39,622 nt of DNA from a virus (taxonomy: Duplodnaviria; Caudoviricetes). Below the pieces are notes generated by a model. The model saw only the letters and a program-made list of their open reading frames with translations. It did no database searches and was not told the DNA's origin. The translations under genes and the position numbers were made by a program. Below, one piece after another: positions 12,361 to 39,085 of this stretch (position 1 is its first letter; each line of letters begins with the position of its first letter). The stretch is from positions 1 to 39,622 of IMG/VR virus record IMGVR_UViG_3300037478_000532. One strand, 5' to 3'.

Positions 12361-12365
12361 CTCCG

Positions 12366-20491: not shown

Positions 20492-20905
20492 CTATTCCGG
20501 TTTGACTTGGAGTGCCGCGGCGATCTCGGCCGCTCTTGCCTTGCCCAGCGCCGCGATCATCCCCTGCCAGCCGCGCTTGAACCTTGCGCTGTCGAGGCTG
20601 ATGGGCTCACTTCCCTGTGCCTGCAATGCGGCCCACAGCAGGCCCATCTCATCCGACTGTGCGGCTGCCGTTCGGATCGCGGCGTAGTCGGTCGGCGTCA
20701 ATGCCGCGAACAACTCGCGCGCCATGAACTCGCGCTTGGGTGGATTGAGCACGGCTCGAATTTCGGCCTCGGTCGGCCTACCGCCGATGCAGTCGGCCCA
20801 ATAGTCCATACCGTCAATTGCGATAGGCCCATATCGCACCGCGTCGGGGTGCTGCGCGCTCGCCGGCCATTTTGGCTCGTGGCCGTGGTAGACGGCGCGG
20901 ATCAT
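20492..20905 (-). CDS. tail-fibre-associated protein
   Basis: Coupled to the fibre gene. Confidence 0.65.
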   Translation of the reverse strand: MIRAVYHGHEPKWPASAQHPDAVRYGPIAIDGMDYWADCIGGRPTEAEIRAVLNPPKREFMARELFAALTPTDYAAIRTAAAQSDEMGLLWAALQAQGSEPISLDSARFKRGWQGMIAALGKARAAEIAAALQVKPE

Positions 20906-23094
20906 GTCATGATCTCCTTCAACTCGATGTAGCTGTTGATGAGACCGCCATAGTCGCGAGACCCGGCCCGGCCGTTGAACGTCGTGGTCCCGGCCGAAGA
21001 ACTGCCGGCCCGGACGTTGAAGGTGATCGTACTTGTGGTGGCCGCCAACGCCACGTAATTGATGTTAGGAGGCGGGCAATGCACTGTGTCGGCAATGGCG
21101 CGTTGCGGCGCGACAGCCACCGTCGTGGTGCCATTCAACAAGAACGCAGCAAAGTTGCTACCGACGCTGTGCGCCAAGTACACCTGCGCTTCGACTCTAG
21201 TCAAATTGGCGGCGGATGTCGGCGTGATGCTATCCGACAGGAATTGCGTGCCTTCGGAGCTTGTCGGAGCCGAGTCGTCCAGGGGAACGGTCGTCGTTCC
21301 GGTGGCGACCTCGCCGTCGTCGTCGCGCTGGATTTGCAGGATGTCGCCGGGCAGCGGGTCGCCTGGAGCCCAGAGATGCTCGCGTGTCGGGGCAACCCAT
21401 GTGCCGGCGGTCAAGCCGCTTTCCCATGATGCCCAGCCGATGACGGTGTACGCCTTCGCGGTGACGGCGGAGTCGGTGTAGAAGATTTGTGATGAGTCTG
21501 ATCCGGTCCCTACCGCAGTCGAACTGGCGATGCCCCAGCCCCGGAGTCGGTACAGACTCACAAGTTTGCCTAATGATGTGGCTGCTGTCTTGATGACCCC
21601 CAGCCGCAGCGTTCCCCCATCATTGAAGATCGTCGCGTAGACGCGCGCGGCGTACCCGTTTACGAACCCCAACGTGCCGCCGCTCGGCACCGTCACCGAC
21701 AGCGGCGCCGTCACCGCGACCCATTCCGGCGCACCGTCCGTCACCGTAACGGAGCGGAACCGGACCCATACCGGATCGCCGGCGCTCGGATCGTTGCCGG
21801 CGTTGGTCTTCAATGCAGCGGTCAGGGCGTTGGAATCGACCGACCAATCCAGATAGCCGTTGACGATGTTGACATTCGCTTCGGTGTTTCCGACGCTCCC
21901 GCCGAAATCGACGTCGCCAACGAGAATCCGCCGCGGCCCGCCAGGAGAACCGGGCCGGGTGAAGTACAGTTCGTCTGTGTCAACGAGAGACGTTTCGAAC
22001 GCTTCGGTGCCGGCGAACAGGCCGTCCGCGCCGGCGGCACCGTCGGCCGCTTGCATGTTTATGCCGGTATCGACCCAAGCCAACGGCGATCCGGTCAGGA
22101 CATAGAGGTCGCCATCCGTCGAGTCGGCGTCGATCCAAAGCGACCCGGCCGGATACGTCGTCGCCGGTTCGTCGTTTTGCGTGACGATAGTCGAACCGTC
22201 AGCGCCGTCTGCCCCATTGGAGCCATTGGCACCGTTCGCCCCGTCGGCGCCCTGCATGTTGATGCCGGTGTCGACCCATGCCAGAGGCGAGCCAGTCAGG
22301 ACATAGAGATCGGCGTCGTCGGAATCGGCATCGATCCACAGCGAGCCGGCGGGAAACGTGGTGGACGGTTCGTCGTTTTGCGCGGTCGTCGTTGTGCCAT
22401 CGGCGCCGGACACCCCAGTCGCGCCGGTATCACCGTCGGCACCTGTGACATACGCCGGACCCTGCCACGACGGCGGCGAAGTCGCGAGCAGGCTGTAGAT
22501 CGCGGCACGGCCGTCGCCGGTGTCGTCGACCAGCACGCGAAAGCCAGCGACCTCGCCCTCGTAGGCCGCACGCGCGGCGATGTCGTCGACGTGCGCGTCG
22601 AAGTCGAGTCCCTCGCCGTCCTCGCCGATTACGCCTTGAACCACCGGCACGAACATCCAGAATGCATCGTCCTCGTCCGCAGTCGGCGGCACGTTGCCGG
22701 TGTTGTCGTCGACCTTGGATGCGAACAGCCGGCCGTCGTGGGTGACAAGATGTCCGGTGTGGTAGGTGGTCGACGGCGAGCCGGTGTTGTAGGCGCCTAC
22801 CGGAGTGAGGCCCAGAACGTCGCTGCCCTGCGCCAGGCCGATCGGGATGTAGCGCCATGTGCGCGAGAACGCGCCTTTGGTTGCGTCGATACGATAGTGC
22901 CCGCCGATGGTATTAAATCCGGCGTCGGCGCCGTCGGCGGCGACGAACGGGTTATCCATGCCGATCGCGCCGTTGAAGTCGGAAAAGAGCTGCGGCAGGG
23001 CGCCGGAAAATTCCGTCGTCACCGTCACGGTTGCGCCGTCGACGATGTCGCCGGCTTCGTCTGTGATCGCAAAATTGTAGCGCGCAAAGGGCAT
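20902..23094 (-). CDS. tail fibre/receptor-binding protein with collagen-like linkers
   Basis: G-X-Y stretches, duplicated module, position after the hub. Confidence 0.8.
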   Translation of the reverse strand: MPFARYNFAITDEAGDIVDGATVTVTTEFSGALPQLFSDFNGAIGMDNPFVAADGADAGFNTIGGHYRIDATKGAFSRTWRYIPIGLAQGSDVLGLTPVGAYNTGSPSTTYHTGHLVTHDGRLFASKVDDNTGNVPPTADEDDAFWMFVPVVQGVIGEDGEGLDFDAHVDDIAARAAYEGEVAGFRVLVDDTGDGRAAIYSLLATSPPSWQGPAYVTGADGDTGATGVSGADGTTTTAQNDEPSTTFPAGSLWIDADSDDADLYVLTGSPLAWVDTGINMQGADGANGANGSNGADGADGSTIVTQNDEPATTYPAGSLWIDADSTDGDLYVLTGSPLAWVDTGINMQAADGAAGADGLFAGTEAFETSLVDTDELYFTRPGSPGGPRRILVGDVDFGGSVGNTEANVNIVNGYLDWSVDSNALTAALKTNAGNDPSAGDPVWVRFRSVTVTDGAPEWVAVTAPLSVTVPSGGTLGFVNGYAARVYATIFNDGGTLRLGVIKTAATSLGKLVSLYRLRGWGIASSTAVGTGSDSSQIFYTDSAVTAKAYTVIGWASWESGLTAGTWVAPTREHLWAPGDPLPGDILQIQRDDDGEVATGTTTVPLDDSAPTSSEGTQFLSDSITPTSAANLTRVEAQVYLAHSVGSNFAAFLLNGTTTVAVAPQRAIADTVHCPPPNINYVALAATTSTITFNVRAGSSSAGTTTFNGRAGSRDYGGLINSYIELKEIMT
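22052..22387 (-). repeat. tandem duplication within the tail fibre (201-nt period)
   Basis: QNDEP.TT.PAGSLWIDADS.D.DLYVLTGSPLAWVDTGINMQ twice. Confidence 0.9.
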
Positions 23095-23130
23095 GATGGT
23101 CGCTCGATGTTGTGTGCTGGATCGACGCCG

Positions 23131-25392
23131 CTAGTTGACCTGGCCGCCGCGGCGGTCGCCGATCGGCGATCCCGAAGTCACAAAGCTGATGCCGTCGATG
23201 GCCTTACCTGCCGCGCCGGCGGCGGTGTTCGAGCTGTGGCCCTTGGTGCCGGCCTCACCCGGATCGCCGCCCCTGCCGCCGGGCGGACGGAAAGTGGCGG
23301 CGCCGCCGGCGCCGCCGACATCGGCGGTGCCGGGCTTGCCGTCCTTCGCATCGCCAGCCGCCTTGCCGCCGGCGCCGGGCACGGTTCCCGCGCCGCCGCC
23401 GCCGCCGTTGCCATACGCCAAGCTGCCTTGGCCAGCGCCGCCGCCGCCGCCGCCGCCGAAGATTTCTCCGGAAGCGTCGTCAACCGTGATAGCCGCACGG
23501 GCATAGAACGCCGTACCACCGGCGGCACCGGCTGTCGCCGCGGTTGGAAACTCACCTTTACCTCCCTTGCCGCCAGCACCCTGAATCCGTCCCACCAGGA
23601 CCAGGATCAGCGTCACCCCAGCCGGCCAATCTCCAACGTCAAATGCGGGATTCAGGTTTGAACTTGATCCGACTGTGACTCCCGCATTGACGATGCAGGT
23701 CACCGTGATGCCGGCTTCCGGCGCCGGATAGATCGAGTCGTGCGCGGTGCGGAAATTGTAGTTGTTGATGTTCGACGCGATGATCAGCGTGCGTTCCGTC
23801 GAATCCTCCGCCGGCACGTCGAACCTTGCTTCCTCGGCCTCGACCTCGATGTAGTCGGCGCCGGGTTTGAGCCGCACCACCTGCACCGGCGCGTCGGTCG
23901 GCGCCCCGGTGTCGTCCTGCATCGTCCAGTGCTCGACGCGATAGCCGCCGGCGAGCTCCGGCATCACCGGCAGGCTGTCGCGCAACAGATGAAACCGGAA
24001 CAGCCGCGGCGGGATGGTGAACCGCCCCAGCAGGATAGCGTTGCGGCGGTCGGCGGCGCTGCGCCCGGCGATCGGAATAAGCCGGGTGAAGTCCTGCCGG
24101 ATCGCCGCCGAGCCTTCGTTGGCCTCGGCAAGAAGGTCGATCGACGGCGCCACCGCGGCGAAGTTCTTGGCGTCGGTCAGGCTTGTGAGCGGATCGATCT
24201 GGGCGAAATAGGTAACGACCTGCGACAGCCGCTTGTCGGGCTGCTCCTGCACGTCGAAGCTGCCGGCGGCCATCTCGGCCTCGGTGAACCGCGCCGCGGT
24301 GGTATCGACGCCTTTGATGACTTGAAATCCGATCTGCTGGACGTCGTCGCGCCACCAGATCACCAGGCCGGCGACCTGGATCAATTCGGCCAGCAAGTCC
24401 TCGACCGGCGTCGGGTTTGCGACGATCCAGGTGTAGACCCGGTTGAGGTGCGCGGCGGTTTCCGCCTGCCACGCCGCCAGCGGAATGAACGAAGCATCGA
24501 CGCCGGCATAGTTGATCAGCAAATCGGCGACGATGTCGGCGGCGTCCTGCTGCTCGTAGTAGAGCACCTGCTGGACGCGGTCCTCGGCGGCGTGCAAATC
24601 CGCCGCCGTCGAAAGCTGCGCGCGGACGATGGTGAGCGCGTCGCTGGAGCGCGTGAACGAACATATTTCGCTGCCGCCGATCGCGACGTAGCCCGACGCT
24701 GCGTATTCGGCATTGCCGATGCCAGAAGGCGTCAGCGTCGCGGCAAGGTCGTTGTCGTCGATGCCGGCGACCAGGTAGCCGTTGTTCGGCAGCGGCGCCA
24801 GCGCGCGGTCGCCGGAAGCCAGCTTGAGCACGTCCTTGGCGACGATGGTGAAGATGCCGTCGGCGTTTGGGCCGTCGTAGTTGTCGATCACGAAATGGTG
24901 GGTTTCCATTTCGTCGATCGAGGTGCCGGGCTCGCCCAACTTCCAGCGCAGCGAGCGCCCGCGCATGTACGGGTTGCGGGCGTGCCACTTGCCGAAGAAC
25001 GTGCCTTGCGTGAATGCGTTGTAGCTGCGCTCGCTGAGATACTTGTCGCCGCCGGGCCCGGTGTCGCTGTGGCGGAAGTCGCGCAGCTTGACGGTGAGCG
25101 TCGCGCGCTCGCCCAGGTTCTCGCCGAGCGAAAGCCGGCCGGGATCGAACTCGATGTCGACGATGCAGGGAATCGCTTCGATGTCGGCGGGCAGGAACTC
25201 GGTCGGCACCGCGAACCGCCACGTCACCGGCACGTTGTTGAAGTTGTCGGGGTCCTGGCATGTGCCTAGCGAGTTGAAGCACTTGCGGGTGCCGGTCGGC
25301 GGCGACGCGGTAAGCGACGCCTGGCACGGCGCCACGCCGAATGTCTCGGCGCAATTGTCGACGTCGACCTCGATGTATTGCGCTATCCGCAT
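23131..25392 (-). CDS. tail tip/hub protein with C-terminal Gly-rich domain
   Basis: N-terminal C..C..C..C; GGGGGGG-rich C-terminus; position after distal tail. Confidence 0.8.
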   Translation of the reverse strand: MRIAQYIEVDVDNCAETFGVAPCQASLTASPPTGTRKCFNSLGTCQDPDNFNNVPVTWRFAVPTEFLPADIEAIPCIVDIEFDPGRLSLGENLGERATLTVKLRDFRHSDTGPGGDKYLSERSYNAFTQGTFFGKWHARNPYMRGRSLRWKLGEPGTSIDEMETHHFVIDNYDGPNADGIFTIVAKDVLKLASGDRALAPLPNNGYLVAGIDDNDLAATLTPSGIGNAEYAASGYVAIGGSEICSFTRSSDALTIVRAQLSTAADLHAAEDRVQQVLYYEQQDAADIVADLLINYAGVDASFIPLAAWQAETAAHLNRVYTWIVANPTPVEDLLAELIQVAGLVIWWRDDVQQIGFQVIKGVDTTAARFTEAEMAAGSFDVQEQPDKRLSQVVTYFAQIDPLTSLTDAKNFAAVAPSIDLLAEANEGSAAIRQDFTRLIPIAGRSAADRRNAILLGRFTIPPRLFRFHLLRDSLPVMPELAGGYRVEHWTMQDDTGAPTDAPVQVVRLKPGADYIEVEAEEARFDVPAEDSTERTLIIASNINNYNFRTAHDSIYPAPEAGITVTCIVNAGVTVGSSSNLNPAFDVGDWPAGVTLILVLVGRIQGAGGKGGKGEFPTAATAGAAGGTAFYARAAITVDDASGEIFGGGGGGGAGQGSLAYGNGGGGGAGTVPGAGGKAAGDAKDGKPGTADVGGAGGAATFRPPGGRGGDPGEAGTKGHSSNTAAGAAGKAIDGISFVTSGSPIGDRRGGQVN

Positions 25393-25436
25393 CGGCCGGC
25401 GTCGATCCGTTCAATGTTCGAAGGGCTGCGCGCCGG

Positions 25437-26255
25437 CTAGGCGACGCCGGTCATTTCAAGCGTGAGCGCCACCAGCCCGTGCGGGCTTTCGTTGACCGGC
25501 ATCGGCTCGTTGGTCATGGCGCAATAGCCGATCTCGGCCGGGTAGCTCTGCGGGCGCCAGCCGAAGAAGAACGGCGTGTCGCGGCTCGCAGCGACGAACG
25601 CATCGATGTGGGCGCGGTAGTAGGCCGGCTCGATCAGCGACAGCGGCACCTTGGATTCGCGGAATTCCTGGGTGACGATGCGGCCGAGATAGTCGCCGGC
25701 CTCGCTTCTACCGTTGGCCACCACCACGCGGCGGCCGTGCACGATCGGCGTGATGCCCTGGTACAGCTTTCGCGGCAGCACCAGAAGCTTGCCGGCGGAC
25801 AGCACCGCGATCTGCGCAACCGCGCTGCCGGCAGCAAGCTTGAGCCAGATCGCTTCGAGCGGCTGCGGCGTGAAGCGAAACAGCAGCGGGCCGTTGTCGC
25901 CCGGCAGTGACGGCCCGGCGAGCTCGGTCCACAGCGGCGGGCTTGCGGTATCGAAATATCCGACCGACGCGGCGATGCCGGCGGTGGCGAGGTTGTGCTT
26001 GGCGATCGCCAGCGCGTCGAGATCGTCGGCCGAATTTGTGGTGATCTTGATGTACTGCTCGACCGCGGTCGCGGCCTGCCATTTCAGGTGCGTCGCCGGA
26101 TTGGCCAGGTTGATCGCCGGGAAGTCGGCGTCCTCGGTATCTGCTTCGATGTTGTCGATGGTGACGATGTTGTTCCACAACACGATGGGATGATCCGCCG
26201 TCAGGCTCGGATCGTCCTCGGTGAGAACGAAGTTCGATGAAAGGACGATGCCCAC
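25437..26255 (-). CDS. distal tail-like protein
   Basis: Immediately downstream of the tape measure; NLANPAT...PFFFGWRP. Confidence 0.7.
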   Translation of the reverse strand: MGIVLSSNFVLTEDDPSLTADHPIVLWNNIVTIDNIEADTEDADFPAINLANPATHLKWQAATAVEQYIKITTNSADDLDALAIAKHNLATAGIAASVGYFDTASPPLWTELAGPSLPGDNGPLLFRFTPQPLEAIWLKLAAGSAVAQIAVLSAGKLLVLPRKLYQGITPIVHGRRVVVANGRSEAGDYLGRIVTQEFRESKVPLSLIEPAYYRAHIDAFVAASRDTPFFFGWRPQSYPAEIGYCAMTNEPMPVNESPHGLVALTLEMTGVA

Positions 26256-26274
26256 GGGGTGCGGCCCAGGTTTC

Positions 26275-28257: not shown

Positions 28258-28282
28258 GATGGTTAGCCTCTATCGTGCGGGG

Positions 28283-28627
28283 TCAATGGGACGTGCGGTT
28301 TGCCGCGCCGGCGAGCGCCGACCAGCGTTCTTCAGGGGTCTGGAATCGGTGCTGCGGCTTGGCGCCGGGCTTGATCAGCAGCCTGTCGAGCTTGACCGGC
28401 TTGGCCCGCAGCAAGTCCGCGATGCGCCAGGCCAGATAGGTCGATTCGTTGTGTTCTTGAATCAATCGGTCCTGGTGGCCGTCGAACGCCAATTGCAGGA
28501 GCCGCGGCGTTTGCCGCCAGAATGAATCGGGGTCCAGCCCTAGCCCGCACCAGCAGCGGAAGAGGCCGGGCCAGTCGAGGGCGGTTTCTTCCGACCCGGC
28601 GGCGGAGGGTTCGGCGATACCGCGCCC
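28283..28627 (-). CDS. tail assembly chaperone gpT-like extension (-1 frame)
   Basis: Open frame without own ATG encoding DWPGLFRCWCGLGLDPDSFWRQTPR. Confidence 0.7.
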   Translation of the reverse strand, partial: GRGIAEPSAAGSEETALDWPGLFRCWCGLGLDPDSFWRQTPRLLQLAFDGHQDRLIQEHNESTYLAWRIADLLRAKPVKLDRLLIKPGAKPQHRFQTPEERWSALAGAANRTSH

Positions 28628-29004: not shown

Positions 29005-29013
29005 GCGTCACCT

Positions 29014-29721
29014 TTACGCCGCGATGGTGTCGGTCGCGGGCGATGTTGCCGCAGCGGAGCCGGCCGAATTCACCGCTGTCACCTGCACCGAGATGTGATC
29101 GGTTTCGTCGCCGGCCTGAAGCGTGTAGGTCCGCGACGTTGCGCCGGCGATGGCCGCCGGCGGCGACGCCGACGCGGCATACCATTGATAGGTGAAGCTG
29201 GTCGGCTCGTTGGCCCAGACGCCTTCGTAGGCGGTGAGCACCTCGCCGACTTCCAGCAGGCCGGAGATCGCCGGCAGGGTCAGATTCGAAGGCGCCGCGG
29301 CGGCGTTGGCGGTCAGCGTTCCGCTGCGCTTGAGCGTCACCGCAGCTACCGACTTGTCCTCGGTCGGCGCTTCCGGCTCGACGCTCTGGATATAGCCGTC
29401 ATACTCGACGTAGCGGCCATCCGGCCAGACCTCGCGGAACGTCTTCTTGACCCGCTTGGCTCCTTCGAGAAGCGCCATGGTCGCCGACACCGGATCGTAG
29501 TGAATCTGAAACGACGTCTCGCCGGTGCGCACGATCCCGGCGACGACCTCTTCCTCGGTGTCCGGCGACTCGTTGTGGGTGGCGTCGACCATGTCGACGG
29601 AAAAGCCGGACGGGGTGACGTCCTTCATCTGGCCCAGCGTGGTGAACGTCACCGGCGAGGCCGAGGTCTTCATCTTGATCAGCAGGCCAAAGCCGATTTC
29701 CGCATTGGTTTCTTCCGACAT
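29014..29721 (-). CDS. major tail (tube) protein with C-terminal Ig-like domain
   Basis: DATHNESP..GETSFQIHY; PAISG..TYQWY..VTAVN Ig-like end. Confidence 0.85.
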   Translation of the reverse strand: MSEETNAEIGFGLLIKMKTSASPVTFTTLGQMKDVTPSGFSVDMVDATHNESPDTEEEVVAGIVRTGETSFQIHYDPVSATMALLEGAKRVKKTFREVWPDGRYVEYDGYIQSVEPEAPTEDKSVAAVTLKRSGTLTANAAAAPSNLTLPAISGLLEVGEVLTAYEGVWANEPTSFTYQWYAASASPPAAIAGATSRTYTLQAGDETDHISVQVTAVNSAGSAAATSPATDTIAA

Positions 29722-30342: not shown

Positions 30343-30353
30343 CCCGCCCATTC

Positions 30354-30415: not shown

Positions 30416-30443
30416 CCGTGTGACTTATCAACAGGAGGACGAC

Positions 30444-30713
30444 ATGACCAACGAAGACTTCATGATCCAGACGGCCGAGTATCTGAGCAAAATCACCGGC
30501 GTTCAGGCCCAATGGGCCTACGACTTCCTCGATCACGTCGGGGTCGCAAGCGAAGCTGATCTCTGCGCCATATACCTCGGCGACGGGCACAAGGAATGTT
30601 TGATGTTCCTCGAAAATGAACTGCGCTCTTACCCGTGGGACCCGGATGCCGAGTATCAGTTCGAAGCGGAGGTTTTCGAACCGTGGTTGGAGCGGATCGG
30701 GGGAATGGCATGA
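30444..30713 (+). CDS. acidic hypothetical protein (cassette 2 cargo)
   Basis: AGGAGG RBS; antisense to the late operon. Confidence 0.75.
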   Translation: MTNEDFMIQTAEYLSKITGVQAQWAYDFLDHVGVASEADLCAIYLGDGHKECLMFLENELRSYPWDPDAEYQFEAEVFEPWLERIGGMA

Positions 30714-30922
30714 CCCCAAAACAACTGCGGATCGCCATCGCGTACCTTTTCATCGGCGGCGAACGCGACGACGATCAAGGCATCGGTGCGTTTGCGCGTT
30801 GGCTCCGCATCAATCCCAGCACCATCCACCGCTGGCTATCCGGGGCCACCAAAGTCCATCCCGCCGTCGACAAGCTGTTGCGACTGATGGTGCGACACAA
30901 CCTGACGCCGGACGACGTGTGA
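30710..30922 (+). CDS. XRE-like HTH regulator (cassette 2)
   Basis: AFARWLRINPSTIHRWLSG; ATGA coupling. Confidence 0.75.
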   Translation: MTPKQLRIAIAYLFIGGERDDDQGIGAFARWLRINPSTIHRWLSGATKVHPAVDKLLRLMVRHNLTPDDV

Positions 30923-30979
30923 CCAGGTGCAAGGTCGATAGCGTTAGCGTCATCGAGGTCTCGCGGGTGGAGGCCATCG

Positions 30980-31405
30980 TCATCGTTCCTCATAGTGAAT
31001 GAAGTAATCCGCGATCTTGCCGCGAAGGTCGGCTTCGGTATCGTCGGAATCCCGCCAGCCATCGAGGAACACGCCTTGCACGGTCACCAGCGCGTCGCCC
31101 GATCCCATCGGGCCGCGATAACCGTCGATGCGTTCCTTGACCGCCAGATAGAGCGCGTGCGCGGCGTCGGCCGTCTGGGCCCAGGCCGCGATCTGCATCC
31201 GCACCATTGCCAGTCCCGACGGACCCTCGTTGTGGTGATCGCCCAGCCCGGAGATTTCGTTGTAGACGATGCTTGCCGCGGTCACGCCCTGCGGCAGCTT
31301 CACCGGATAGATTCGCGTCGTCCCGCCGCCCACCACCAGCGCCGCAATCGCCGCGTCGGCGGCGAGGAACGCGCGCAGCGCCGGGCGGATGTCTTTCAAT
31401 GCCAT
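30980..31405 (-). CDS. tail terminator (DUF3168-like)
   Basis: RIYP..LPQG, RMQIAAWA; synteny. Confidence 0.8.
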   Translation of the reverse strand: MALKDIRPALRAFLAADAAIAALVVGGGTTRIYPVKLPQGVTAASIVYNEISGLGDHHNEGPSGLAMVRMQIAAWAQTADAAHALYLAVKERIDGYRGPMGSGDALVTVQGVFLDGWRDSDDTEADLRGKIADYFIHYEER

Positions 31406-31407
31406 GG

Positions 31408-31776
31408 TCAGACGTCCGTGCGGCGCTCGGCCGCGATTCGGATGCCACGATCCCGTCCCATCTCCGGCGCGGCGAGAATGTCGAACACGGTGCCCGCCGC
31501 CGGCGACTGCACGTCGGCAGCGGCGGGCGCGGGGTAGAGGATGCGGTCGAGCGGCGACAGATCGGCAAGCGCGGGTGAATTCCGGACGATGAACTCGACC
31601 TGTTCCTTCGCCACTTCCTGCGCGGCGGTGAACCGCTCTTCGCCGCGCAGCGGGCGATAGCCCGCAAAGATGCGGTGGGCTCGGTCGGCCCAGGTCTCGA
31701 CCGGAGCGCCGGACGGCGATTGCGTCACGGTCTTTCTCTGGATGGTGATCAGGCGGTCGAGATTGCCGGCCCTCAT
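31408..31776 (-). CDS. head closure/head-tail adaptor (SPP1 gp16-like)
   Basis: MRAGNLDRLITIQ...G.E motif. Confidence 0.85.
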   Translation of the reverse strand: MRAGNLDRLITIQRKTVTQSPSGAPVETWADRAHRIFAGYRPLRGEERFTAAQEVAKEQVEFIVRNSPALADLSPLDRILYPAPAAADVQSPAAGTVFDILAAPEMGRDRGIRIAAERRTDV

Positions 31777-31779
31777 AGG

Positions 31780-32031
31780 TCACCCATGAACAAGGCCGAG
31801 CCGCTTTGCCTCAAGGTAGCGGGCGACTTGTCCGCTATCGTCGCGCAACCGACACTCCGAGATATGCTTCCAAGCCTCATCCGCCGACATGAAGCAGCAG
31901 AATGATCGTTGTCCGCTTGAGTCGAGGTAGTATTCCTCTATTTCCGCATGATCGCCGATCATCGCACGGACAGAATAAAAACTGTCTTCGTCGTCCCATC
32001 GTGGTTCGCTAGCGAATGTGTGCTCCGTCAC
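31780..32031 (-). CDS. inserted acidic hypothetical protein
   Basis: Flanked by 13-bp near-identical direct repeat. Confidence 0.6.
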   Translation of the reverse strand: MTEHTFASEPRWDDEDSFYSVRAMIGDHAEIEEYYLDSSGQRSFCCFMSADEAWKHISECRLRDDSGQVARYLEAKRLGLVHG

Positions 32032-32834
32032 AGGTCACCCCTCACATTCTCCCAGCACGCGCCGCTGGCGATCTCGTCCTTGGTCCATTGCTTCCACGCC
32101 AGCGCATGGGCCCATGCCGTTCGATCCGGCATCGGCGGCATGTTCAATTCGTGCCCCGTCACATCCCAGGCCATCGATCCTTGATCCATCGCAATCGCCG
32201 GAATTCCAGCCAGCACAGCGTCGACACCCGCGTTCGAATTCCATGTCACGACACAGCGCGCGCCGGATAGATCGTCCGCCAGAGAACGGTACGCCGCGGC
32301 AATCGCCCGCTCGCCGGATTTCGGCGAAGACCGCGGATGCGCCCGCACCATGGCGGCGATCCCCTGCGCGGCGAACGCCCGATGCGCTTTGGCGTAGAAG
32401 CCCGGCAGATCGACGCCGCGCACCGAATTGTCGCCCGGCACCTGCTCCATGATCAGCGCGTAACCGTCCGGCTTCGGATTCCACGGTTGCAGCAGATGCG
32501 CGAAGTGCCGTTCGAAGCGCGTTCCGTCATGGAACGGTCCGCGGAAAATGCCGCGGCCGTTCAAGCCGCCGCCAAAGCTCACCGACGCATACTTGAACCG
32601 ATCCGGCAAATAGGACCGCTCCAGGATGCAGACCTCGCAGCCGTCACGCCTGGCGCGCTCGATCGTCTCGCGCTGCGAGACCCCCCAGAACACCACCAGA
32701 TCGTTGCGGGCGTAATCGGTGCGCAGCTCGGCGCCCCAGCCGTGGCGCATCAGCCCCTCCGCGAAGGCGCCGCCCCAGCTACCCGCCCATTCCGTTTGCA
32801 CCGTGCGAACCAGGACGGTCGCCGATTTGGCCAT
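32028..32834 (-). CDS. GT-B glycosyltransferase, KpsC/KpsS (Capsule_synth)-like
   Basis: QVPGD, RAHP, VTWNSNAGVDAVLAG. Confidence 0.7.
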   Translation of the reverse strand: MAKSATVLVRTVQTEWAGSWGGAFAEGLMRHGWGAELRTDYARNDLVVFWGVSQRETIERARRDGCEVCILERSYLPDRFKYASVSFGGGLNGRGIFRGPFHDGTRFERHFAHLLQPWNPKPDGYALIMEQVPGDNSVRGVDLPGFYAKAHRAFAAQGIAAMVRAHPRSSPKSGERAIAAAYRSLADDLSGARCVVTWNSNAGVDAVLAGIPAIAMDQGSMAWDVTGHELNMPPMPDRTAWAHALAWKQWTKDEIASGACWENVRGDL

Positions 32835-33297
32835 GCAACGATTCCCAATCCGACTTGGCGCGGCGCAGGTCCGCCGCTCCGATGCCGCCGACGAGCAGCC
32901 ATCGTTCGCCCCAGGGCGATGCTGTGCCGGGCTTGTCGATCCGCTCGATTGCAACGTCGATGCCGAGTGCCAGCGCGCAAGCCAGACGGTGCGCGCCGTT
33001 GCGCATCCGCCCGTTCGTCCCGATCGGGATCGGACACGACGGATCGAAGCCGTTTGCCTGCATCGATGTCAGCAATTCGCGCGCGGCAGCGACGTAGTCG
33101 TCAACCGAACGCTTCCAGCTTCCCTTTTCGATGCCATTGGTGCGCTGCGCGATGTGCCAGCGATAGACTCGCTCCGCGTCCGGATCGCCGCCTGCGATCA
33201 GATGGCAAAAGAACCGCCACTTGATCGCGATGTCGAGTCGGTCAGGCGACAGCAGCGAGCGCGGGCAGACCGGCAAACTCCCGAAGCCTTGCGACAT
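32779..33297 (-). CDS. ParB/Srx N-terminal-like domain protein
   Basis: SMQANGFD..PIPI...NGAHRLA. Confidence 0.65.
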   Translation of the reverse strand: MSQGFGSLPVCPRSLLSPDRLDIAIKWRFFCHLIAGGDPDAERVYRWHIAQRTNGIEKGSWKRSVDDYVAAARELLTSMQANGFDPSCPIPIGTNGRMRNGAHRLACALALGIDVAIERIDKPGTASPWGERWLLVGGIGAADLRRAKSDWESLHGQIGDRPGSHGANGMGG

Positions 33298-33838
33298 TGT
33301 CGGCGACCGGCTCCGTGGTATCGATCTCGATCAATGGCACACCGGCGGCCTTCATCGCGGCAACGCAAATCGGCTGCACCGCGGCCATCCTTATCGACAG
33401 GGCGGAGCGCTGCTTGTTGCGGATAACCTTGCCGCGCGCGACGTTGCGACGATGCAGCGTGTCGATGTCCGCGTGCAGCGACGCCACCCCGATCGACACC
33501 GGCATCAATTCATAGAACTCCCGGATGGCGTTCGGTTTCGGCAACCGCCAGGCGATCGAGATGCCGCGATGCGCCAAGCCGACGTTCATGTAGACGCCAT
33601 CGCCGGGCATGCGCGCGATGTGCTGCATGCGCCAGATCGCGGTTTGCGTCAGGCGCCATGCGCCGGGATGCCCATTGGCCGAAGCCAGGTCGCACAGCCG
33701 CCGCGCGCATTGCGCGAACTTGTCCCACGCCTGCGGCAACTCGATGCGATCCTGCGAGTAGGTGTCCGGATTCCACAGCGGCGTGCAAATGGTTGTCTTG
33801 CCGACGCCGGTCGGGCCGAAGACGTCGACCCAGCGCAT
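33242..33838 (-). CDS. P-loop small-molecule kinase
   Basis: GPTGVGKTT Walker A; RRNVAR lid. Confidence 0.75.
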   Translation of the reverse strand: MRWVDVFGPTGVGKTTICTPLWNPDTYSQDRIELPQAWDKFAQCARRLCDLASANGHPGAWRLTQTAIWRMQHIARMPGDGVYMNVGLAHRGISIAWRLPKPNAIREFYELMPVSIGVASLHADIDTLHRRNVARGKVIRNKQRSALSIRMAAVQPICVAAMKAAGVPLIEIDTTEPVADNVARLREFAGLPALAAVA

Positions 33839-34209
33839 CACTTGCCATCCGCAAGCACGGCGACGAACAGGTCTTCCACCGCAACCACGCGAAGTACCTC
33901 CAGTGCCAGGTCTTCGGTACGCATGTCGCGCTCGGCGGCTTCCAGGCGAAGCGCGTCCAGCACTTCGCCGGAATCGATTCGCAACGACAACCCCGCATCG
34001 CATCCCGGCGGCGGGTCGAGCAGGCCGCGGGCGATGGCCTTGGTGCGGACCATGGTGACGTAGGGCCGCTTGCAGCCGCGCGCCGCGGCGATCTGCCGGG
34101 GCGTCATCGTGCCGACACGCAAGTCGGCGAGAACGCCTTCCGCCTTGCTGCCGGGCTGCGGAAACGGCAGCGCGTTGCTCGGCATCGCGAGTGCTCGGCG
34201 TTCAGCCAT
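33838..34209 (-). CDS. HTH DNA-binding protein
   Basis: TPRQIAAARGCKRPYVT. Confidence 0.6.
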   Translation of the reverse strand: MAERRALAMPSNALPFPQPGSKAEGVLADLRVGTMTPRQIAAARGCKRPYVTMVRTKAIARGLLDPPPGCDAGLSLRIDSGEVLDALRLEAAERDMRTEDLALEVLRVVAVEDLFVAVLADGK

Positions 34210-34822
34210 TTTGATCGGCCGGTTGCGGTTCGATCACGCGGCGCAACCTCACCATGTGCCATGCGTTGCGATGAATGAGCCGCACCTCTTCGATCTTCCA
34301 GCCCGGCAGGATTGCCGCTTCAAGCACGGTCATCGAATGCTTGCGGTGCCGCTGTCCGCGCTCGACGTCATCGCCGATGCGCAGCGTGAACACGACCGTC
34401 GACCGCGCCACCCGCTGCAACTCGCGGACCGCCGTTTGCATCGGCGCCCGGTCGATCAGATTGAGGATGCGGACCGCAAGCGCAACGTCGAACGACTTGT
34501 CCGGCGCGTCGATGGCGAGGATGTCGCCGACACGGAATTCTACCAGCCGCGGGTCGATTGCTTTGAGCGCAGCCTCCCGCAGCATGTCGGGATTGATGTC
34601 GAGGCCCAGAACGCTGAATCTCTTTTCCCGGTAGAACGGGATGAACCGGCCGGTGCCGAACGGAACGTCGAGGACGCGCGTTCCGGGCGGCAAGGCCCCG
34701 AGCATGTCGCGCACGGTTTGATCCTCGACTGCCCATCGCTCCTGGCCGACGCGCTTTGCTTCGTATTCCTGGGCATAGCCGCCCTGGTAGCGGCGGGCCG
34801 TCATGCCGGCGACCGCACTCAC
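34202..34822 (-). CDS. class I SAM-dependent methyltransferase
   Basis: VLDVPFGTGR, GLDINPDM, SFDV. Confidence 0.85.
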   Translation of the reverse strand: MSAVAGMTARRYQGGYAQEYEAKRVGQERWAVEDQTVRDMLGALPPGTRVLDVPFGTGRFIPFYREKRFSVLGLDINPDMLREAALKAIDPRLVEFRVGDILAIDAPDKSFDVALAVRILNLIDRAPMQTAVRELQRVARSTVVFTLRIGDDVERGQRHRKHSMTVLEAAILPGWKIEEVRLIHRNAWHMVRLRRVIEPQPADQNG

Positions 34823-35079
34823 GCGGCAGCCCTTCGTTCCACCCAAACGAGAGTGCGCGATGGCCATCCGATGCCGCCATCTGCAAAGTATTTGACGAGC
34901 TGATTTGGGTGCAGCCCTTCATTGGAATCCGGCAACACAAGCGTTCGAACGCGCGTGCGATCACTCTCCAAAATTTTCCGATCTTCGACGTAGCACTCCA
35001 TGGCCACTTCCGGCGACGCGCGGAGATACACACAAATTCGGAAGTCTGGATCGCATTTATCGAACGGCATCGTTCTCAT
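34819..35079 (-). CDS. inserted hypothetical protein
   Basis: ATGA/GTGA coupling at both ends. Confidence 0.5.
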   Translation of the reverse strand: MRTMPFDKCDPDFRICVYLRASPEVAMECYVEDRKILESDRTRVRTLVLPDSNEGLHPNQLVKYFADGGIGWPSRTLVWVERRAAA

Positions 35080-35804
35080 CGCCAATGTTCCTTCACCCAC
35101 GGAAACTTCGCCTGCACCTTCGCCATCCCCGGCTCGCGCTTGCCCATGAACAACACGATCTTTGCGTTGTCGGGCAGTTCGGTCGCGACGCCCGGCCCCT
35201 TGTCCGACATCCGCATCGCGTTCCAGACGCCGTGCGTGTGGTCCCAATACGGATTGTCGCGGTCGACCCGCGACGAAATCCACTTCTGATCGGTTCCCAT
35301 GCTGTGGCCGAGTTGCCGCATCAGGCCCGGTGTAATTCGCGGATCGAAATCATCGTAAAGATCGGGCCGCACTCCCGCAGTCAGCATGATCATGCTGGAA
35401 TTGAATCTCATGCGACCTCGTATCAAACCGAAATTCACGTTGCGGTACAGCACAAGCGGTTCGCTTCGCTGCACCAAGCCGTCGCAGTTTCGCACCAGCA
35501 CCACGTCAAGGTCGCTTGAGAGGATGCGTGGCCCGAGCAGCGCCGCGATGTCGCGACGAAACACCATCAGCTTGGCGTAGCGGGTGCCGGGAACGAAGGT
35601 CCGGCGATCCAGAGGCACGGTCCGGATCGATTTGTCGACCAGGTCCGGCCGGTCGGTGATGCAGACGTAGTCGTGCGGCACCGTCAGATGCCGCGCGAAC
35701 ATATTGCGGTGAATCTCGATATGTCTCGGCCGGTAGTCATAGCGTTCCTGGCCGGCGACGGCATGGTCGTGCCACCAAAACGAACAGACGGTTAGCCTAG
35801 ACAT
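35076..35804 (-). CDS. GT-A glycosyltransferase (GT8-like)
   Basis: CITD, DLD (DxD), NSS, TDQ.WIS, F.G..EP. Confidence 0.8.
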   Translation of the reverse strand: MSRLTVCSFWWHDHAVAGQERYDYRPRHIEIHRNMFARHLTVPHDYVCITDRPDLVDKSIRTVPLDRRTFVPGTRYAKLMVFRRDIAALLGPRILSSDLDVVLVRNCDGLVQRSEPLVLYRNVNFGLIRGRMRFNSSMIMLTAGVRPDLYDDFDPRITPGLMRQLGHSMGTDQKWISSRVDRDNPYWDHTHGVWNAMRMSDKGPGVATELPDNAKIVLFMGKREPGMAKVQAKFPWVKEHWR

Positions 35805-36450
35805 GACATGGCACCGCCTGCACCGTCGCGACCATATCGCGGAACGCCTGCGATTTCCTCATGGCGTGCCACACCGCCTTGTCCTCGTGACGCCGCGCCT
35901 TCTGGCGGCGCTTGGGTTCGTCCCACGAACTTTCCGGTTCGCCGCGCACGCGGTCGGTCAGCCGGATCGTGTGCCGGCGCAGATACACCAAACGACCGCT
36001 GGCGCGCGCGAGCTTGCGCCAGTATTGATCGAGCCCGTAGTGCTGCAACCCGGCCGGGCCGACGTCGCCGACCGCGCGCAACAGCGTGCCGCAGATTGCC
36101 GGCATGCAGTACCGGCCGCGGCCGTCGTCGCAATAGGCGATGCGGCCCGGCATGCATGCCTCGATCAGCGCCACGTCCCATCCGCGGGTGAGCGGCTCGC
36201 AGTCGTCGACCAGCATCCCGTACCATTGCAAATCCGGAAATGCGCGGAACGCGAACCTGACCTTGTCGACACAGCCGATCGATTCGCCGGGCCGCACCAG
36301 GATTTCGGCGCCGGTTGCGTGATATTCCGACGTGCACGGCTCGGTCTCGTCGATCACGACGACAATGCGTGTCTGTGTTTTCGTCGCGGCGCATGCCGCC
36401 AGAAAGCGGCGCAGCTTGTGCGGCCTTTGACGCGATGGCACGATCCACAT
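35797..36450 (-). CDS. GT-A glycosyltransferase (GT2-like)
   Basis: IVPSRQRP, VIDE, VDDC, GWD, HYGLD. Confidence 0.7.
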   Translation of the reverse strand: MWIVPSRQRPHKLRRFLAACAATKTQTRIVVVIDETEPCTSEYHATGAEILVRPGESIGCVDKVRFAFRAFPDLQWYGMLVDDCEPLTRGWDVALIEACMPGRIAYCDDGRGRYCMPAICGTLLRAVGDVGPAGLQHYGLDQYWRKLARASGRLVYLRRHTIRLTDRVRGEPESSWDEPKRRQKARRHEDKAVWHAMRKSQAFRDMVATVQAVPCHV

Positions 36451-37044
36451 TCAGCGGGTCCAGATCACGCCGATGCCGCGCCGGATCGGATCGACCGATA
36501 TCGTCTGAGCGCGGCGGGCTTTTGAGAGTTCATCGAACAGCGCGCCGGGCCCGGTCAGCCGGCGGCCGTCGCTGCACACATCGTGGAACGCGACGACGCG
36601 CCCCATCGCGCCGTAGTTAAACCAATCGGCATCGACGTCGTCCCTGGAATGTCCGGCGTCGATGAAAACCGCGTCGTAGGGTCCGCGAAGCATGGCGAGT
36701 TGCCGCGTCTCCATCGCGCGGCTGTCGCCCAGGATCACGCTGGCCTTTTGCCCGCGCGAGCGCAGATCGTCCACACAACGCTGCAACCGCTCGCGCTTGA
36801 ACGCGCTGTCCTCGCGGCGTTTGCTGCGGCCCGGCTCGTGCACGAAAGACCGACCCCAATCGACGCCGACGATCGTCGATCCCTGCGGCAGCGCGCAGCC
36901 GACCGCGTGCATGGTGTCGCCGTAACGGCAACCGACCTCCATGTAGGACCGTACGCCTTCGGCTGTCAGCAGTTCGATGAACCTGGCGAGTTCGTCCTGA
37001 TACTGCGGCCACGACTCGCCTGAGAAGCCGACGGCGTCCTTCAC
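36451..37044 (-). CDS. SAM methyltransferase (Methyltransf_24-like)
   Basis: YMEVGCRYG, GDS, FIDAGH, VAFHD. Confidence 0.85.
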   Translation of the reverse strand: MKDAVGFSGESWPQYQDELARFIELLTAEGVRSYMEVGCRYGDTMHAVGCALPQGSTIVGVDWGRSFVHEPGRSKRREDSAFKRERLQRCVDDLRSRGQKASVILGDSRAMETRQLAMLRGPYDAVFIDAGHSRDDVDADWFNYGAMGRVVAFHDVCSDGRRLTGPGALFDELSKARRAQTISVDPIRRGIGVIWTR

Positions 37045-37045
37045 G

Positions 37046-37633
37046 TTACGGCCCGTTCCATATCAAACCGATGCCGCGGCGGTGGTTGCTGGTCGAGATG
37101 ATTTTCGAGCGGTGGTCGATGGCGAGACCGAGATAGAGCTCGCGCACGCCCCATTCCGGCAACCGGTTCATCACGTCGTGGAACGCGACGATGCGCGCCA
37201 TCGGCCCGTAGTTGTGCCAATCGGAGGTCGCGCCTTCGCTGGTGTGGTCGGCGTCGATCAGCAAGGCGTCGAACGGACCAAGGAATCTTGCCGCCACGAT
37301 CGTGGCCGCGTCGCGGCTGTTGCCGATCACCAGATGCGCGTCGCGGCCCGCCTCACGCAAAGACGCCACCGCGCGGACGAGATAGGGCTCGCTGCCCTGA
37401 ATCCTGTAGGACAACCCGCCGGTCTTGATGCCGGGCAGATCGACCCCGACGATGCGCGAGCCTTCCGGCAATGTCATCCCGACTTTGTGCAGCGTATCGC
37501 CCCAGCGGCAACCCACTTCGAGATACGATGTTGCGCCTTCGGCACGCAGCAATTCGACGAAGGCGGCCAATTCCTGCGGGTCTTGATTCAGGCGTTTGCC
37601 GGACAGCCCGTCGGCTCTTTCACTACCGCGCAA
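37046..37633 (-). CDS. SAM methyltransferase (Methyltransf_24-like), paralogue
   Basis: YLEVGCRWG, GNS, LIDADH, VAFHD. Confidence 0.85.
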   Translation of the reverse strand: MRGSERADGLSGKRLNQDPQELAAFVELLRAEGATSYLEVGCRWGDTLHKVGMTLPEGSRIVGVDLPGIKTGGLSYRIQGSEPYLVRAVASLREAGRDAHLVIGNSRDAATIVAARFLGPFDALLIDADHTSEGATSDWHNYGPMARIVAFHDVMNRLPEWGVRELYLGLAIDHRSKIISTSNHRRGIGLIWNGP

Positions 37634-38276
37634 GCTCGCCCTCCAGGTCCGCGATGCGAAAGCACTTCAGCGCGCTGCCGGGCGTGCAGTTGACGATCTC
37701 GACCGTGTCGGGCAGCGCCTTCGCCGCCTCGTCGAACGTCGGCACCCAACTTTCGAACCGCGCGGTGTTGTCGAGCGGCTTCGGATGATTGCCGAAGAAG
37801 TGCCTTCCGTTCCTGGCGTGCATATCGAAACCGACCAGCACGATCGCGCCGACAAATCCCAGCCGGTGCAGTGTCCAGTTGATCGTCTGAAACCCGCTGC
37901 TGAAGCCGTAATGCACCAGCGCCGGATCGCGTGAAAACTCCGGCGCGTACTTTCCGGACACCAGCCGCAGCCCGTATTTCTCAGCGACCCTGGTCTTCTC
38001 GTTTTCCGGCTGGCCGTGACCCAATGGCTTGACACCGTGACTGCTCCACTTTTCCCCGGCAAAGTCAGCACAGCCCTTGTGCAAATCCCACCACTTGCCG
38101 TCGCAGGCATACAGTGCATCGGCGAACGGCATCGGCCGGTAGGCGTCATTGACCGCCATGACCTTGTGCGTCCCGCGCTCGTGCGCGGCGCGGCACAGGT
38201 CGGTGACGGCGGTCGTCAACGACGGTCCGGTCGCTGCCACGATGCAGCGCTGCCCCGCCCATCGGGGCTCGATCAT
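37623..38276 (-). CDS. Maf/DUF115-like (CstII-type fold) transferase
   Basis: ATGPSL, AVND, YACD, SSG, LVGFDM, HFFG, IVNCT. Confidence 0.7.
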   Translation of the reverse strand: MIEPRWAGQRCIVAATGPSLTTAVTDLCRAAHERGTHKVMAVNDAYRPMPFADALYACDGKWWDLHKGCADFAGEKWSSHGVKPLGHGQPENEKTRVAEKYGLRLVSGKYAPEFSRDPALVHYGFSSGFQTINWTLHRLGFVGAIVLVGFDMHARNGRHFFGNHPKPLDNTARFESWVPTFDEAAKALPDTVEIVNCTPGSALKCFRIADLEGELAR

Positions 38277-38299
38277 CTCCAGCACGGCGGGGTGCGCGA

Positions 38300-38689
38300 T
38301 CAGGCAGCCGCGATCACGGCGATCTTTTCGCCTTCGACCACCGCCAATTCCAGCACCTCGTTCTCCAGCATGTAGTGACTGCCGACCACAACGGCCGGAC
38401 TGGCGTCGAAGCCCACCTGGGCGATCGGCGACGCCAGCACCGGCGGCGAGCCGACATAGGTTTCCGGTCCGACCGCGACCCAGCATGCCGCGCCGGCGCG
38501 CAGCACCACCGCGTCGTCCTTGGCGTTGGCGCCGAACTCGCTGAAGACCGACTCCGATCCGATCGCCATGCGCAGGCTGCGCACGCCTGAGCCGCGGGTC
38601 GCCTTCCAGGAAGCCAGCGTATCGGCTGCACTACCGGAGCCCTTGAGCGGAGGACGCTTGCGCACGAACGAGACGACGAGATCGGCCAT
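38300..38689 (-). CDS. probable virion structural protein
   Basis: AAGG RBS; follows connector; contains GSPP/ASP motifs. Confidence 0.65.
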   Translation of the reverse strand: MADLVVSFVRKRPPLKGSGSAADTLASWKATRGSGVRSLRMAIGSESVFSEFGANAKDDAVVLRAGAACWVAVGPETYVGSPPVLASPIAQVGFDASPAVVVGSHYMLENEVLELAVVEGEKIAVIAAA

Positions 38690-38713
38690 TGGATTCGCCT
38701 TTCGATGTGTCGG

Positions 38714-39085
38714 TTAGGCAAGCGCCGGATCGCGCAGGCGCATCAGCAGCAAGGTTATGACGCCCGTCGGCGCCATGTAGTCGGCCAGCGTTCGATCCTT
38801 GTCGGCGTCGTAAAGGGCATCGAGCGCCAGCAGGATCGCGGCCTGGATATTCAGCGTGTCGTTGTCGCTGAAACGCGGCGGCGATCCGCTCCATATTGGA
38901 GGCGAACCGCCATAGACCGCCGCGGTTTTCAGATAATTCAGGACGATCGCTTCGGCCTGGGCGATCTTCATCTCGACGTCCGGCACCCGTGGATCGTCGA
39001 ACGCCGGCGGGCTCCCAGATGTCGTCAGGGTCAATCGCAGGTGATGATTGGCCTGCTCAAGCGTGACCAGCGGCATCGCCGTCAA
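38714..39085 (-). CDS. head-tail connector (HK97 gp6-like)
   Basis: LVTLEQANHHLR, AILL, RDPALA. Confidence 0.85.
   Translation of the reverse strand: MTAMPLVTLEQANHHLRLTLTTSGSPPAFDDPRVPDVEMKIAQAEAIVLNYLKTAAVYGGSPPIWSGSPPRFSDNDTLNIQAAILLALDALYDADKDRTLADYMAPTGVITLLLMRLRDPALA

Follow-up and report, generated by a model that had tools for sequence, protein, structure and literature searches.

Why should unrelated virion proteins of one tailed phage share a short Ser-Pro motif, and what has it to do with the enzyme genes beside them? The question is raised by the window, by which we mean the whole stretch of 39,622 nucleotides of viral DNA analyzed here (IMG/VR record IMGVR_UViG_3300037478_000532); all features named below lie on its minus strand. 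The original prediction held that Ser-Pro-Pro (SPP), preceded by Gly, Ala, or Thr, is a candidate sequon for phage-encoded O-glycosylation, and every Ser-Pro site that it listed was found in its place. Our analysis indicates that a tag made of a small residue followed by Ser-Pro is probably such a sequon, and that its putative reader is likely a single-domain Maf-like transferase (217 aa; positions 37623 to 38276) encoded between the connector and head closure genes.

The head-tail connector (gp6/Ad1-like, 120 aa; 38714 to 39076; phrog_40, E 0.0016) carries three SPP sites, at S22 (39005 to 39013) and at S58 and S65 (38876 to 38905). A 129-aa protein (38300 to 38689), whose site was confirmed and whose virion location is presumed, has GSPP at S81 (38441 to 38449) and ASP at S87 and S97. 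The major tail protein (29014 to 29721; PF16461) bears ASP at S22 (29653 to 29658), ASPP at S186 (29158 to 29166), and TSP at S227, and the fibre (20902 to 23094) bears TSPP at S206 (22471 to 22479), GSPL at S269 and S336, and GSP at S106 and S383. The sites in the two proteins originally called distal tail and hub were likewise present, but these names are positional: the former (25437 to 26255; ASPP at S105, 25935 to 25943) is assigned to phrog_11633, a family of unknown function, and the latter, a hub or tail-tip protein with a Gp38-like C terminus (23131 to 25392; PF05268; ASPP at S30, 25297 to 25305, and GSP at S742), to phrog_11439, a tail fibre family. The head closure protein (31408 to 31776; PF05521), with QSP at S91 (31501 to 31506) in a variable loop, is a weaker case.

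The predicted enrichment of the motif over shuffled proteins was confirmed. Among the 13 proteins (4060 aa) that we ourselves classified as structural, SPP occurred 8 times against 0.68 expected, a count reached in none of 3000 per-protein shuffles, and it was spread over 6 proteins against 0.65 expected. It was the top-scoring tripeptide of this set (Poisson p 7.8e-7; about 0.006 when corrected for 8000 tripeptides), followed by GSP (9 versus 1.2 expected), while TPP, APP, and GPP were each absent from it. The 32 non-virion proteins (5212 aa) contained no SPP, with 0.77 expected. Since the tag serines are encoded by TCN as well as AGY codons, an origin from a DNA repeat was ruled out. The proteins put forward as free of Ser-Pro proved weak negative controls, because their Ser and Pro contents predict only about 0.7 SP pairs in the tape measure, 0.5 in the gp10-like protein, and 0.2 in the tail terminator. 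Besides, the terminator fails as a nontarget, as one of its loops has an SP insertion in seven relatives encoded in Maf-bearing loci.

Compared with close homologues from phages lacking the enzyme cluster, the sites are insertions of 2 to 4 residues, a more extended insert in a loop, or substitutions of single residues. The original prediction had anticipated insertions; insertions or substitutions were found in the tube, distal tail, hub, connector, fibre turn, and terminator relatives. In the major tail protein, ASP at S22 substitutes for the TGP of homologues with 54 to 71% identity, and ASPP at S186 is a 4-residue insertion. ASPP is an insertion of 2 to 3 residues at S105 of the distal-tail-position protein and of 3 residues at S30 of the hub, and the turn with GSPL at S269 and S336 of the fibre is 2 residues shorter in five homologues. 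Among the 31 connector homologues (the window's own included), SP is present in the loop of site 1 in 23 and in that of sites 2 and 3 in 28, being absent from the latter loop in L002 to L004, and it is retained with varied flanks. The 129-aa protein keeps SP at S97 in all four homologues and at S81 in three, the segment being missing in the fourth. Placement of the motifs in loops is borne out, as a prediction, for the three connector sites: in the connector model (pLDDT 86) and the homologue alignment, S22 falls at the tip of a predicted β-hairpin and S58 and S65 in an inserted loop of low confidence. A fold search with this connector gave a weak match to HK97 gp6 (E 3.4) and none at E≤0.001. 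The sites of the tube, distal tail, hub, and fibre are placed in loops by alignment. The tags appear to occupy different loops of different folds.

We further examined the tag in 120 other loci bearing the Maf-like gene and in 44 Maf-free loci that cover the genes from head to tail, with proteins deduplicated at 70%. Outer virion proteins of Maf-bearing loci contained 171 [GAT]SP against 63.7 expected, whereas those of Maf-free loci contained 47 against 49.0, and the non-outer proteins of Maf-bearing loci contained 42 against 56.0. No comparable effect was seen for [GAT]TP (1.27 versus 1.05). Among tripeptides present in at least five families, GSP showed the strongest enrichment in outer virion proteins when the locus had the Maf-like gene (50 versus 9.0 expected, in 7 families) and occurred at the expected level when it did not (6 versus 6.4). 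Per locus, exact GSP in the connector, tube, terminator, or distal tail was found in 27/44 Maf-bearing but only 2/31 Maf-free loci; the looser [GAT]SP gave a modest contrast (48/69 versus 11/31). Fisher tests revealed no enrichment in the portal, head closure, and hub proteins, and the HK97-type capsid site showed no clean Maf pattern. In the short connector family, the raw table reads 11/13 versus 1/22, with just three supported pairs in a tree-pair test. Two Ser-Pro-bearing loci, L066 and L420, were counted as Maf-free: a divergent Maf-like gene was considered in both and rejected, since a noncircular profile test gave a probability of only 2% (E 0.02), and the L066 match comparison and the L420 match are circular, L066 being itself part of alignment A3.

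These comparisons also define the sequon. Strict SPP was rejected on account of the varied flanks in connector homologues and the predominance of GSP over SPP across loci, and none of 27 tail tubes from Maf-bearing loci contained SPP. What stands of the original motif is its core of a small residue, Ser, and Pro, with GSP strongest, SPP itself being a local flavour. Furthermore, GSP was found in none of three loci with a GT-A homologue alone, which identifies the Maf-like gene as the one that the tag follows, and in 6/10 loci with the Maf-like gene but without the two other profiled glycosyltransferase families.

The predicted co-occurrence of tag and cluster across phages held also in a test blind to the motif. 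Among 185 tail-tube loops of the form G[DN]GAxPEVF, a Maf-like gene accompanied 24 of the 69 with Ser at x and 1 of the other 116; the loci are not independent, the 24 records forming 16 groups at 60% identity. In the 45 remaining Ser loops no Maf-like gene was found, many of those records being fragments. Asp or Thr occupies x in 92 of the 185 loops, so Ser-Pro there is also an ordinary turn. All 11 loci with the Maf-like gene in the flank had Ser, compared with 13/56 Maf-free loci whose upstream flank covered 7 kb or more (Fisher p 2e-6). Seven independent pairs on the tail-tube tree gave 6.0 in agreement and 0.1 opposite (median p 0.03), and in held-out records, whose flanks had not been seen beforehand, the gene was present in 8/15 Ser and 0/24 non-Ser cases. 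An apparent exception (L262) has its Maf-like gene 10.8 kb upstream, and in another locus (L495) the tube tag GDGASPE recurs in the head closure protein.

The Maf-like protein belongs to the P1 PmgO/D3 orf7 family (phrog_4603, E 1e-30; 27 to 32% identity), for which we know of no function. One domain spans the whole predicted model, and its best fold match is the flagellin Maf 5mu5 (Z 15.5, rmsd 3.1, 180 aligned residues), also the top match by Foldseek (E 2e-4, TM 0.59), with weaker matches to CstI (Z 10.2), ST6GalNAc2 (Z 8.9), and GT29 sialyltransferases (Z 8 to 9). PF01973 was matched by 9 of 11 aligned relatives (best E 8e-6) but not by the window's own protein at E≤1, and NCBIfam gave no name to any of the window's transferases. 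Relatives number at least 566 in IMG/VR, and 65 phage records in GenBank contain the family, among them those of P1, D3, and Caulobacter jumbo phages. In P1, pmgO was reported to be nonessential in a knock-down (PMC10695390).

The neighbouring cluster comprises two class I methyltransferases (Methyltransf_24; 36451 to 37633), two further glycosyltransferase-like genes of 217 and 242 aa (35076 to 36450; phrog_14945, E 8e-17, and phrog_1962, E 1e-9), a third class I methyltransferase (Methyltransf_25; 34202 to 34804), and, at 32779 to 33838, a P-loop protein with a visible Walker A motif and what we take to be a ParB/Srx-like protein. The last two had no substantial match in the profile libraries searched, and their genes recur within the same cluster in L001. 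A 268-aa protein (32028 to 32834) is a lead for a capsule-type enzyme, the fourth candidate among the phage's glycosyltransferase genes with those of phrog_4603, phrog_14945, and phrog_1962: its ESM Atlas neighbours are named capsule polysaccharide biosynthesis, with PF05159 on 17 to 18% of members in two clusters.

Of the original picture of a glycan-coated virion built by this cluster, the comparative predictions were borne out, and glycosylation itself is what we infer. The Ser-Pro insertions and substitutions in unrelated outer virion proteins would be acceptor sites, to whose serine the Maf-like enzyme would attach an O-linked sugar. Having none of the additional domains found in flagellin Mafs, the enzyme would recognize the local small-Ser-Pro turn. 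The first sugar of the glycan may be an ulosonic acid supplied by the host in CMP-activated form, with Kdo the most plausible choice; extension and decoration may fall to the products of the three other glycosyltransferase-like genes, together with the methyltransferases and the P-loop protein. Neck, tail tube, tail tip, and fibre would thus be studded with glycans; the capsid genes lie outside the window. The general form of the idea stands at slightly under an even chance: that in widespread tailed phages of Gram-negative bacteria a stripped-down Maf reads a portable small-Ser-Pro sequon, repeatedly written into exposed loops of capsid, neck, tube, tip, and fibre, and that these phages coat the particle with Kdo-started, methylated, capsule-like glycans from host donors.

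It is conceivable, though unlikely, that the same cluster reads the tag but leaves a non-sugar mark, such as a group of phospho or pyrophospho type. Proline-directed kinases act on Ser-Pro, the window contains a P-loop gene, PF01973 carries the name MptE-like, and the Maf-like model also matches the pyrophosphokinase HPPK/MptE (Z 11.5) and thiamine pyrophosphokinases (Z 7 to 8). However, the fold match to Maf leads by 4 Z units, the weak PDB sequence matches of the profile are mostly Campylobacter-type sialyltransferases (E 0.07 to 2), the gene neighbours are glycosyltransferases and methyltransferases, and the P-loop gene gave only two six-frame matches. The counts by gene family bear on another reading, in which the tag serves for noncovalent docking or is modified by a different enzyme of phage or host, with the Maf-like protein coming in afterward, for instance to cap a glycan begun by another enzyme: the absence of GSP from GT-A-only loci and its presence in most Maf loci without the two other families argue against this, although further transferases may be encoded there. 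In its favour are the CstI and GT29 relatives, which add caps to existing glycans instead of modifying protein serines, the GenBank annotation of the PAJU2 homologue as "structural protein," and the lack of the tag in some Maf-bearing phages; even so, we consider this reading very unlikely.

Could Ser-Pro be merely a favoured turn, linked to the gene by shared phage ancestry? Such a view draws on the interchange of Asp, Thr, and Ser before Pro in the tail-tube turn, on the Ser found in Maf-free loci, and on the narrow sampling, in which related loci recur. It is highly improbable in view of the lack of Thr-Pro enrichment, the different loops and folds involved, the position of the window's own tube ASP inside a TGP clade, and the positive independent-pairs and held-out tests.

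Some observations in cultured phages count against the O-glycosylation sequon. In three phages with the Maf-like gene, namely Psp6, PAJU2, and phiNP, the capsid, connector, closure, and tube proteins are all devoid of GSP; the PAJU2 terminator contains a single TSP, and both PAJU2 and Psp6 show GSP in tail-tip or fibre genes. Phage D3 carries the gene together with GSP in tube (DSSGSPTG), terminator, and capsid (Ser310), and therefore makes the idea testable in a cultured phage. The D3 capsid GSP stands where relatives carry GNP, yet the term "glyc" does not occur in the main text of the paper reporting the cryo-EM structure of this capsid, with a virion vertex map at 2.7 Å (PMC12749128; PDB 9osb group). 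Should the tag prove to be a sequon, one could predict glycosylated phages from sequence, the unexplained Maf-like family would gain a function, and a three-residue cytoplasmic O-glycosylation tag would be useful for glycoengineering. Our literature search, with subscription papers outside its coverage, returned no description of a virion sequon built on Ser-Pro or of a virion transferase resembling Maf.

Phage virion glycosylation is described as known from a few mycobacteriophages, whose particles it shields from antibodies (PMC12363180). As for the precedent originally invoked, phage-encoded glycosyltransferases of Che8, Corndog, and Myrna are reported to modify these phages' own capsid and tail tube proteins (PMC12363180, PMC11256854); in at least one mycobacteriophage, Maravista, the glycosyltransferase genes lie near the 3' end of the genome rather than among structural genes (PMC11256854). 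The window's phage resembles them in encoding its own glycosyltransferases; it differs in that the enzyme that follows the tag has a predicted Maf/sialyltransferase-like fold and lies in the head-tail module, in that the phages carrying the gene infect Gram-negative hosts, and in the short tag across many virion proteins. To CstI/CstII and GT29 the enzyme is related in predicted fold, with weak motif similarity and 10 to 16% identity, and P1 PmgO and D3 orf7 share its sequence family, although in several cultured phages with such a gene the head-tail proteins are free of the tag. Flagellin receives nonulosonic acids from Mafs, which vary in their serine-site specificity and use an additional substrate-binding domain (TPR) or a GlfM partner (PMC13317340). 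With the flagellin Maf of M. magneticum (5mu5) our protein shares, by prediction, the catalytic-domain fold, serine acceptors, and a CMP-ulosonate donor. It is, however, a single domain of 217 aa without TPR, aligned only to residues 266 to 512 of the 632-aa Maf, and it is phage encoded outside any flagellar locus, with virion proteins rather than flagellin as its predicted substrates.

The window, 39,622 bases in length, is an entire virus record that CheckV rates as about 50% complete. Its minus strand carries, between 39,621 and about 19,300, a siphophage module with the order collagen-like gene end, connector, 129-aa gene, enzyme cluster (38,276 to 32,028), head closure, terminator, gp10-like gene, tail tube, chaperones, tape measure, distal-tail-position gene, hub, and fibre; no capsid or portal gene was found within the window. 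Two small plus-strand genes (30420 to 30922) lie opposite to the structural operon, between the terminator and gp10-like genes. Past the fibre genes, a 401-aa protein (19280 to 20485, minus strand) with a sialic-acid-acetylesterase domain (PF03629; E value, 5e-33) and a C-terminal ASPQ is probably a surface polysaccharide deacetylase. The host is likely alphaproteobacterial, since the integrase matched best, within a plasmid collection, to one from Pseudorhodobacter (52%) and one fibre relative was from Afipia felis.

All the Ser-Pro sites listed in the original prediction were found in the window proteins. SPP occurred 8 times, in 6 of the 13 structural proteins, against 0.68 expected, a count reached in 0 of 3,000 shuffles, and 0 times in the 32 nonvirion proteins (0.77 expected). 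SPP and GSP were the two most overrepresented tripeptides of the structural set, in which TPP, APP, and GPP did not occur. The tape measure, gp10-like protein, and terminator indeed lack SP, but their value as controls is small because less than one site is expected in each. A small protein at 864 to 1241 (minus strand) has repeated SPE(H/T)RA(K/N)I-like units, which we take to resemble NUMOD3 DNA-binding repeats and which are unrelated to the virion tag.

As SPP had been picked after inspection of the data, the test was extended to other DNA. Genes were called in the collected loci and clustered, and 120 other loci bearing a Maf-like gene were compared with 44 Maf-free loci spanning head to tail genes (the remaining Maf-free loci were excluded as too short), with protein counts deduplicated at 70%. 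The predicted co-occurrence of tag and cluster was borne out: outer proteins contained 171 [GAT]SP sites against 63.7 expected in Maf-bearing loci and 47 against 49.0 in Maf-free loci, and nonouter proteins of Maf-bearing loci contained 42 against 56.0. The motif was present in 36/57 connectors, 17/27 tail tubes, and 42/52 capsids of Maf-bearing loci versus 2/17, 4/18, and 7/16, respectively, of Maf-free loci, whereas portal, head closure, and hub proteins did not differ in this comparison. GSP was the top tripeptide among those present in at least five families (50 against 9.0 in Maf-bearing and 6 against 6.4 in Maf-free loci); in a set of 124 SP sites, Gly and Ala take the lead at position -1, with Pro, Glu, Ala, and Val after the proline. 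Exact GSP in the connector, tube, terminator, or distal tail was seen in 27 of 44 Maf loci versus 2 of 31 Maf-free loci, the latter comprising three loci with the GT-A family alone, none of them with GSP; the looser [GAT]SP gave 48/69 versus 11/31 loci. Proteins ending exactly in Ser-Pro, such as a capsid ending in GEGGSP, were observed in L005, L015, L035, and other Maf-bearing loci, with no clear excess (12/1,424 proteins versus 3/539 in Maf-free loci).

The Maf-like gene lies upstream of the terminase in locus L493 and forms a tandem pair behind portal-region genes in L501, and thus is not restricted to the neck region. D3 (L043:7748-9143), Psp6, and PAJU2 (L484 and L485) have a smaller cluster type than the window, with a Maf-like gene, a different unannotated gene of about 276 aa, and a methyltransferase. 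Right behind the connector, L066 (4570-5364) and its L420 homologue carry a gene with faint Maf-like motifs, which may represent a divergent second family and gave a weak match in a noncircular profile comparison; these phages carry GSPL and ASPE tags.

A motif-blind test gave the same association. GTDB genomes and IMG/VR were scanned for G[DN]GAxPEVF, a turn of the tail tube, leaving x free; this gave at least 240 matches, including 185 tail tubes, among which (for the matches listed) x was Ser in 69, Asp in 50, Thr in 42, Glu in 10, and another residue in 14. Among the matches listed, Ser stood at x in all 11 loci whose flank had a Maf-like gene and in 13 of the 56 Maf-free loci for which 7 kb or more of upstream sequence was available (P = 2e-6). 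With site x excluded, a tree of 97 tubes contained seven supported independent pairs, 6.0 changing in the same direction versus 0.1 in the opposite one (median P = 0.03). The search was then extended to whole records for 150 of these tail tubes; of the remaining 35, 10 came from flank-positive loci and 25 from contigs whose full length had been covered before. In 39 viral records with previously unseen flanks, the Maf-like gene was found in 8/15 Ser versus 0/24 non-Ser records (P = 1e-4), in all eight on the same contig as the tube. The total, among the matches listed, was 24/69 Ser (16 groups at 60% identity) versus 1/116 non-Ser records; L246 (Ser) and L277 (the sole Thr case), with the Maf-like gene outside the compared locus, were counted at the record level. 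Linkage to the tube was checked in L262 (10.8 kb), L330, L331, and L339.

On the alignments, the Ser-Pro sites are recent local edits. The proposal that they are insertions relative to homologues lacking the cluster holds for the tail-tube ASPP loop, whose four residues are missing from 54 to 71% identical homologues of this kind; ASPV of the tube replaces TGPD of the same homologues. The distal-tail-position and hub sites are insertions of two to three residues relative to L037 and L042, the upstream region of L037 being too short to judge the cluster. By sequence, a turn of the fibre repeat is two residues shorter in five homologues and reads GSPL in three. Counting the window's own protein, 23/31 connector homologues have SP in the first loop and 28/31 in the second, with variable flanks (GSPP, ASPP, DSPQ, and NSPL). 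The connector model (pLDDT, 86) has a hairpin tip at S22 and a loop of low confidence around S58 and S65. A terminator loop that lacks SP in the window contains it in seven relatives with the cluster, so sites are gained and lost. In the Maf-bearing prophage L495, whose tail tube reads GDGASPEQF, a head closure protein (12108-12506; G214:C45) has GDGASPEVF, the turn of the tail-tube family, near its N terminus, which may reflect copying of the tag from one gene to the other.

The Maf-like gene (37,623 to 38,276) belongs to phrog_4603, together with P1 PmgO and D3 orf7. The best fold match of its model (pLDDT, 88) was the Maf glycosyltransferase 5mu5 (Z score, 15.5; root mean square deviation, 3.1; 180 aligned residues), followed by HPPK (11.5), SteA (10.4), CstI (10.2), and GT29 sialyltransferases (8 to 9). 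The protein consists of a single domain and lacks the additional domains through which, according to a section of PMC13317340, flagellin Mafs gain acceptor specificity; the modeled architecture fits recognition of a short local tag but does not show it. The first sugar would likeliest be Kdo, because no nucleotide-sugar synthesis gene was seen in the window, the bacterial hosts named among 60 of the 65 GenBank carriers, which also include three algal-culture records and a few without a named host, are Gram negative, one cluster gene resembles capsule-synthesis proteins (a lead), and CMP-Kdo, used by PF05159 enzymes, is general in Gram-negative bacteria; this is the weakest step of the proposal. 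A passage of PMC10695390 gives pmgO as nonessential in P1, which fits an accessory coat and is silent on chemistry.

Some observations count against this reading. Psp6, PAJU2, and phiNP have the Maf-like gene, with the tag nearly absent from their head-tail proteins; their enzymes lie near that of D3 on a weakly supported branch. Most Ser tail-tube loops, among the matches listed, had no Maf-like gene found, many of the records being fragments, so that the Maf-free class contains false negatives. In the D3 capsid protein, GSP stands at a position that reads GNP in relatives, yet the available main text of the D3 cryo-EM paper (PMC12749128) contains no "glyc" term; this counts weakly against glycosylation of that site, because the map might fail to resolve a flexible glycan, or the site might not be in use.

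We are highly confident both in the Ser-Pro tag itself and in its link to the Maf-like gene, and we consider it likely that this enzyme reads the tag as an O-glycosylation sequon. Our literature search found no paper on a Ser-Pro virion tag, and the excerpted text of a jumbo-phage survey (PMC7824862) links such clusters of glycosyltransferases in phages to the surface polysaccharide of the host. The proposed system uses a Maf-like domain; by architecture and context it falls outside the flagellin Maf family. Its proposed mode of working resembles mycobacteriophage virion glycosylation, as outlined in the accessible parts of PMC12363180 and PMC11256854 and a reference in PMC12582341.
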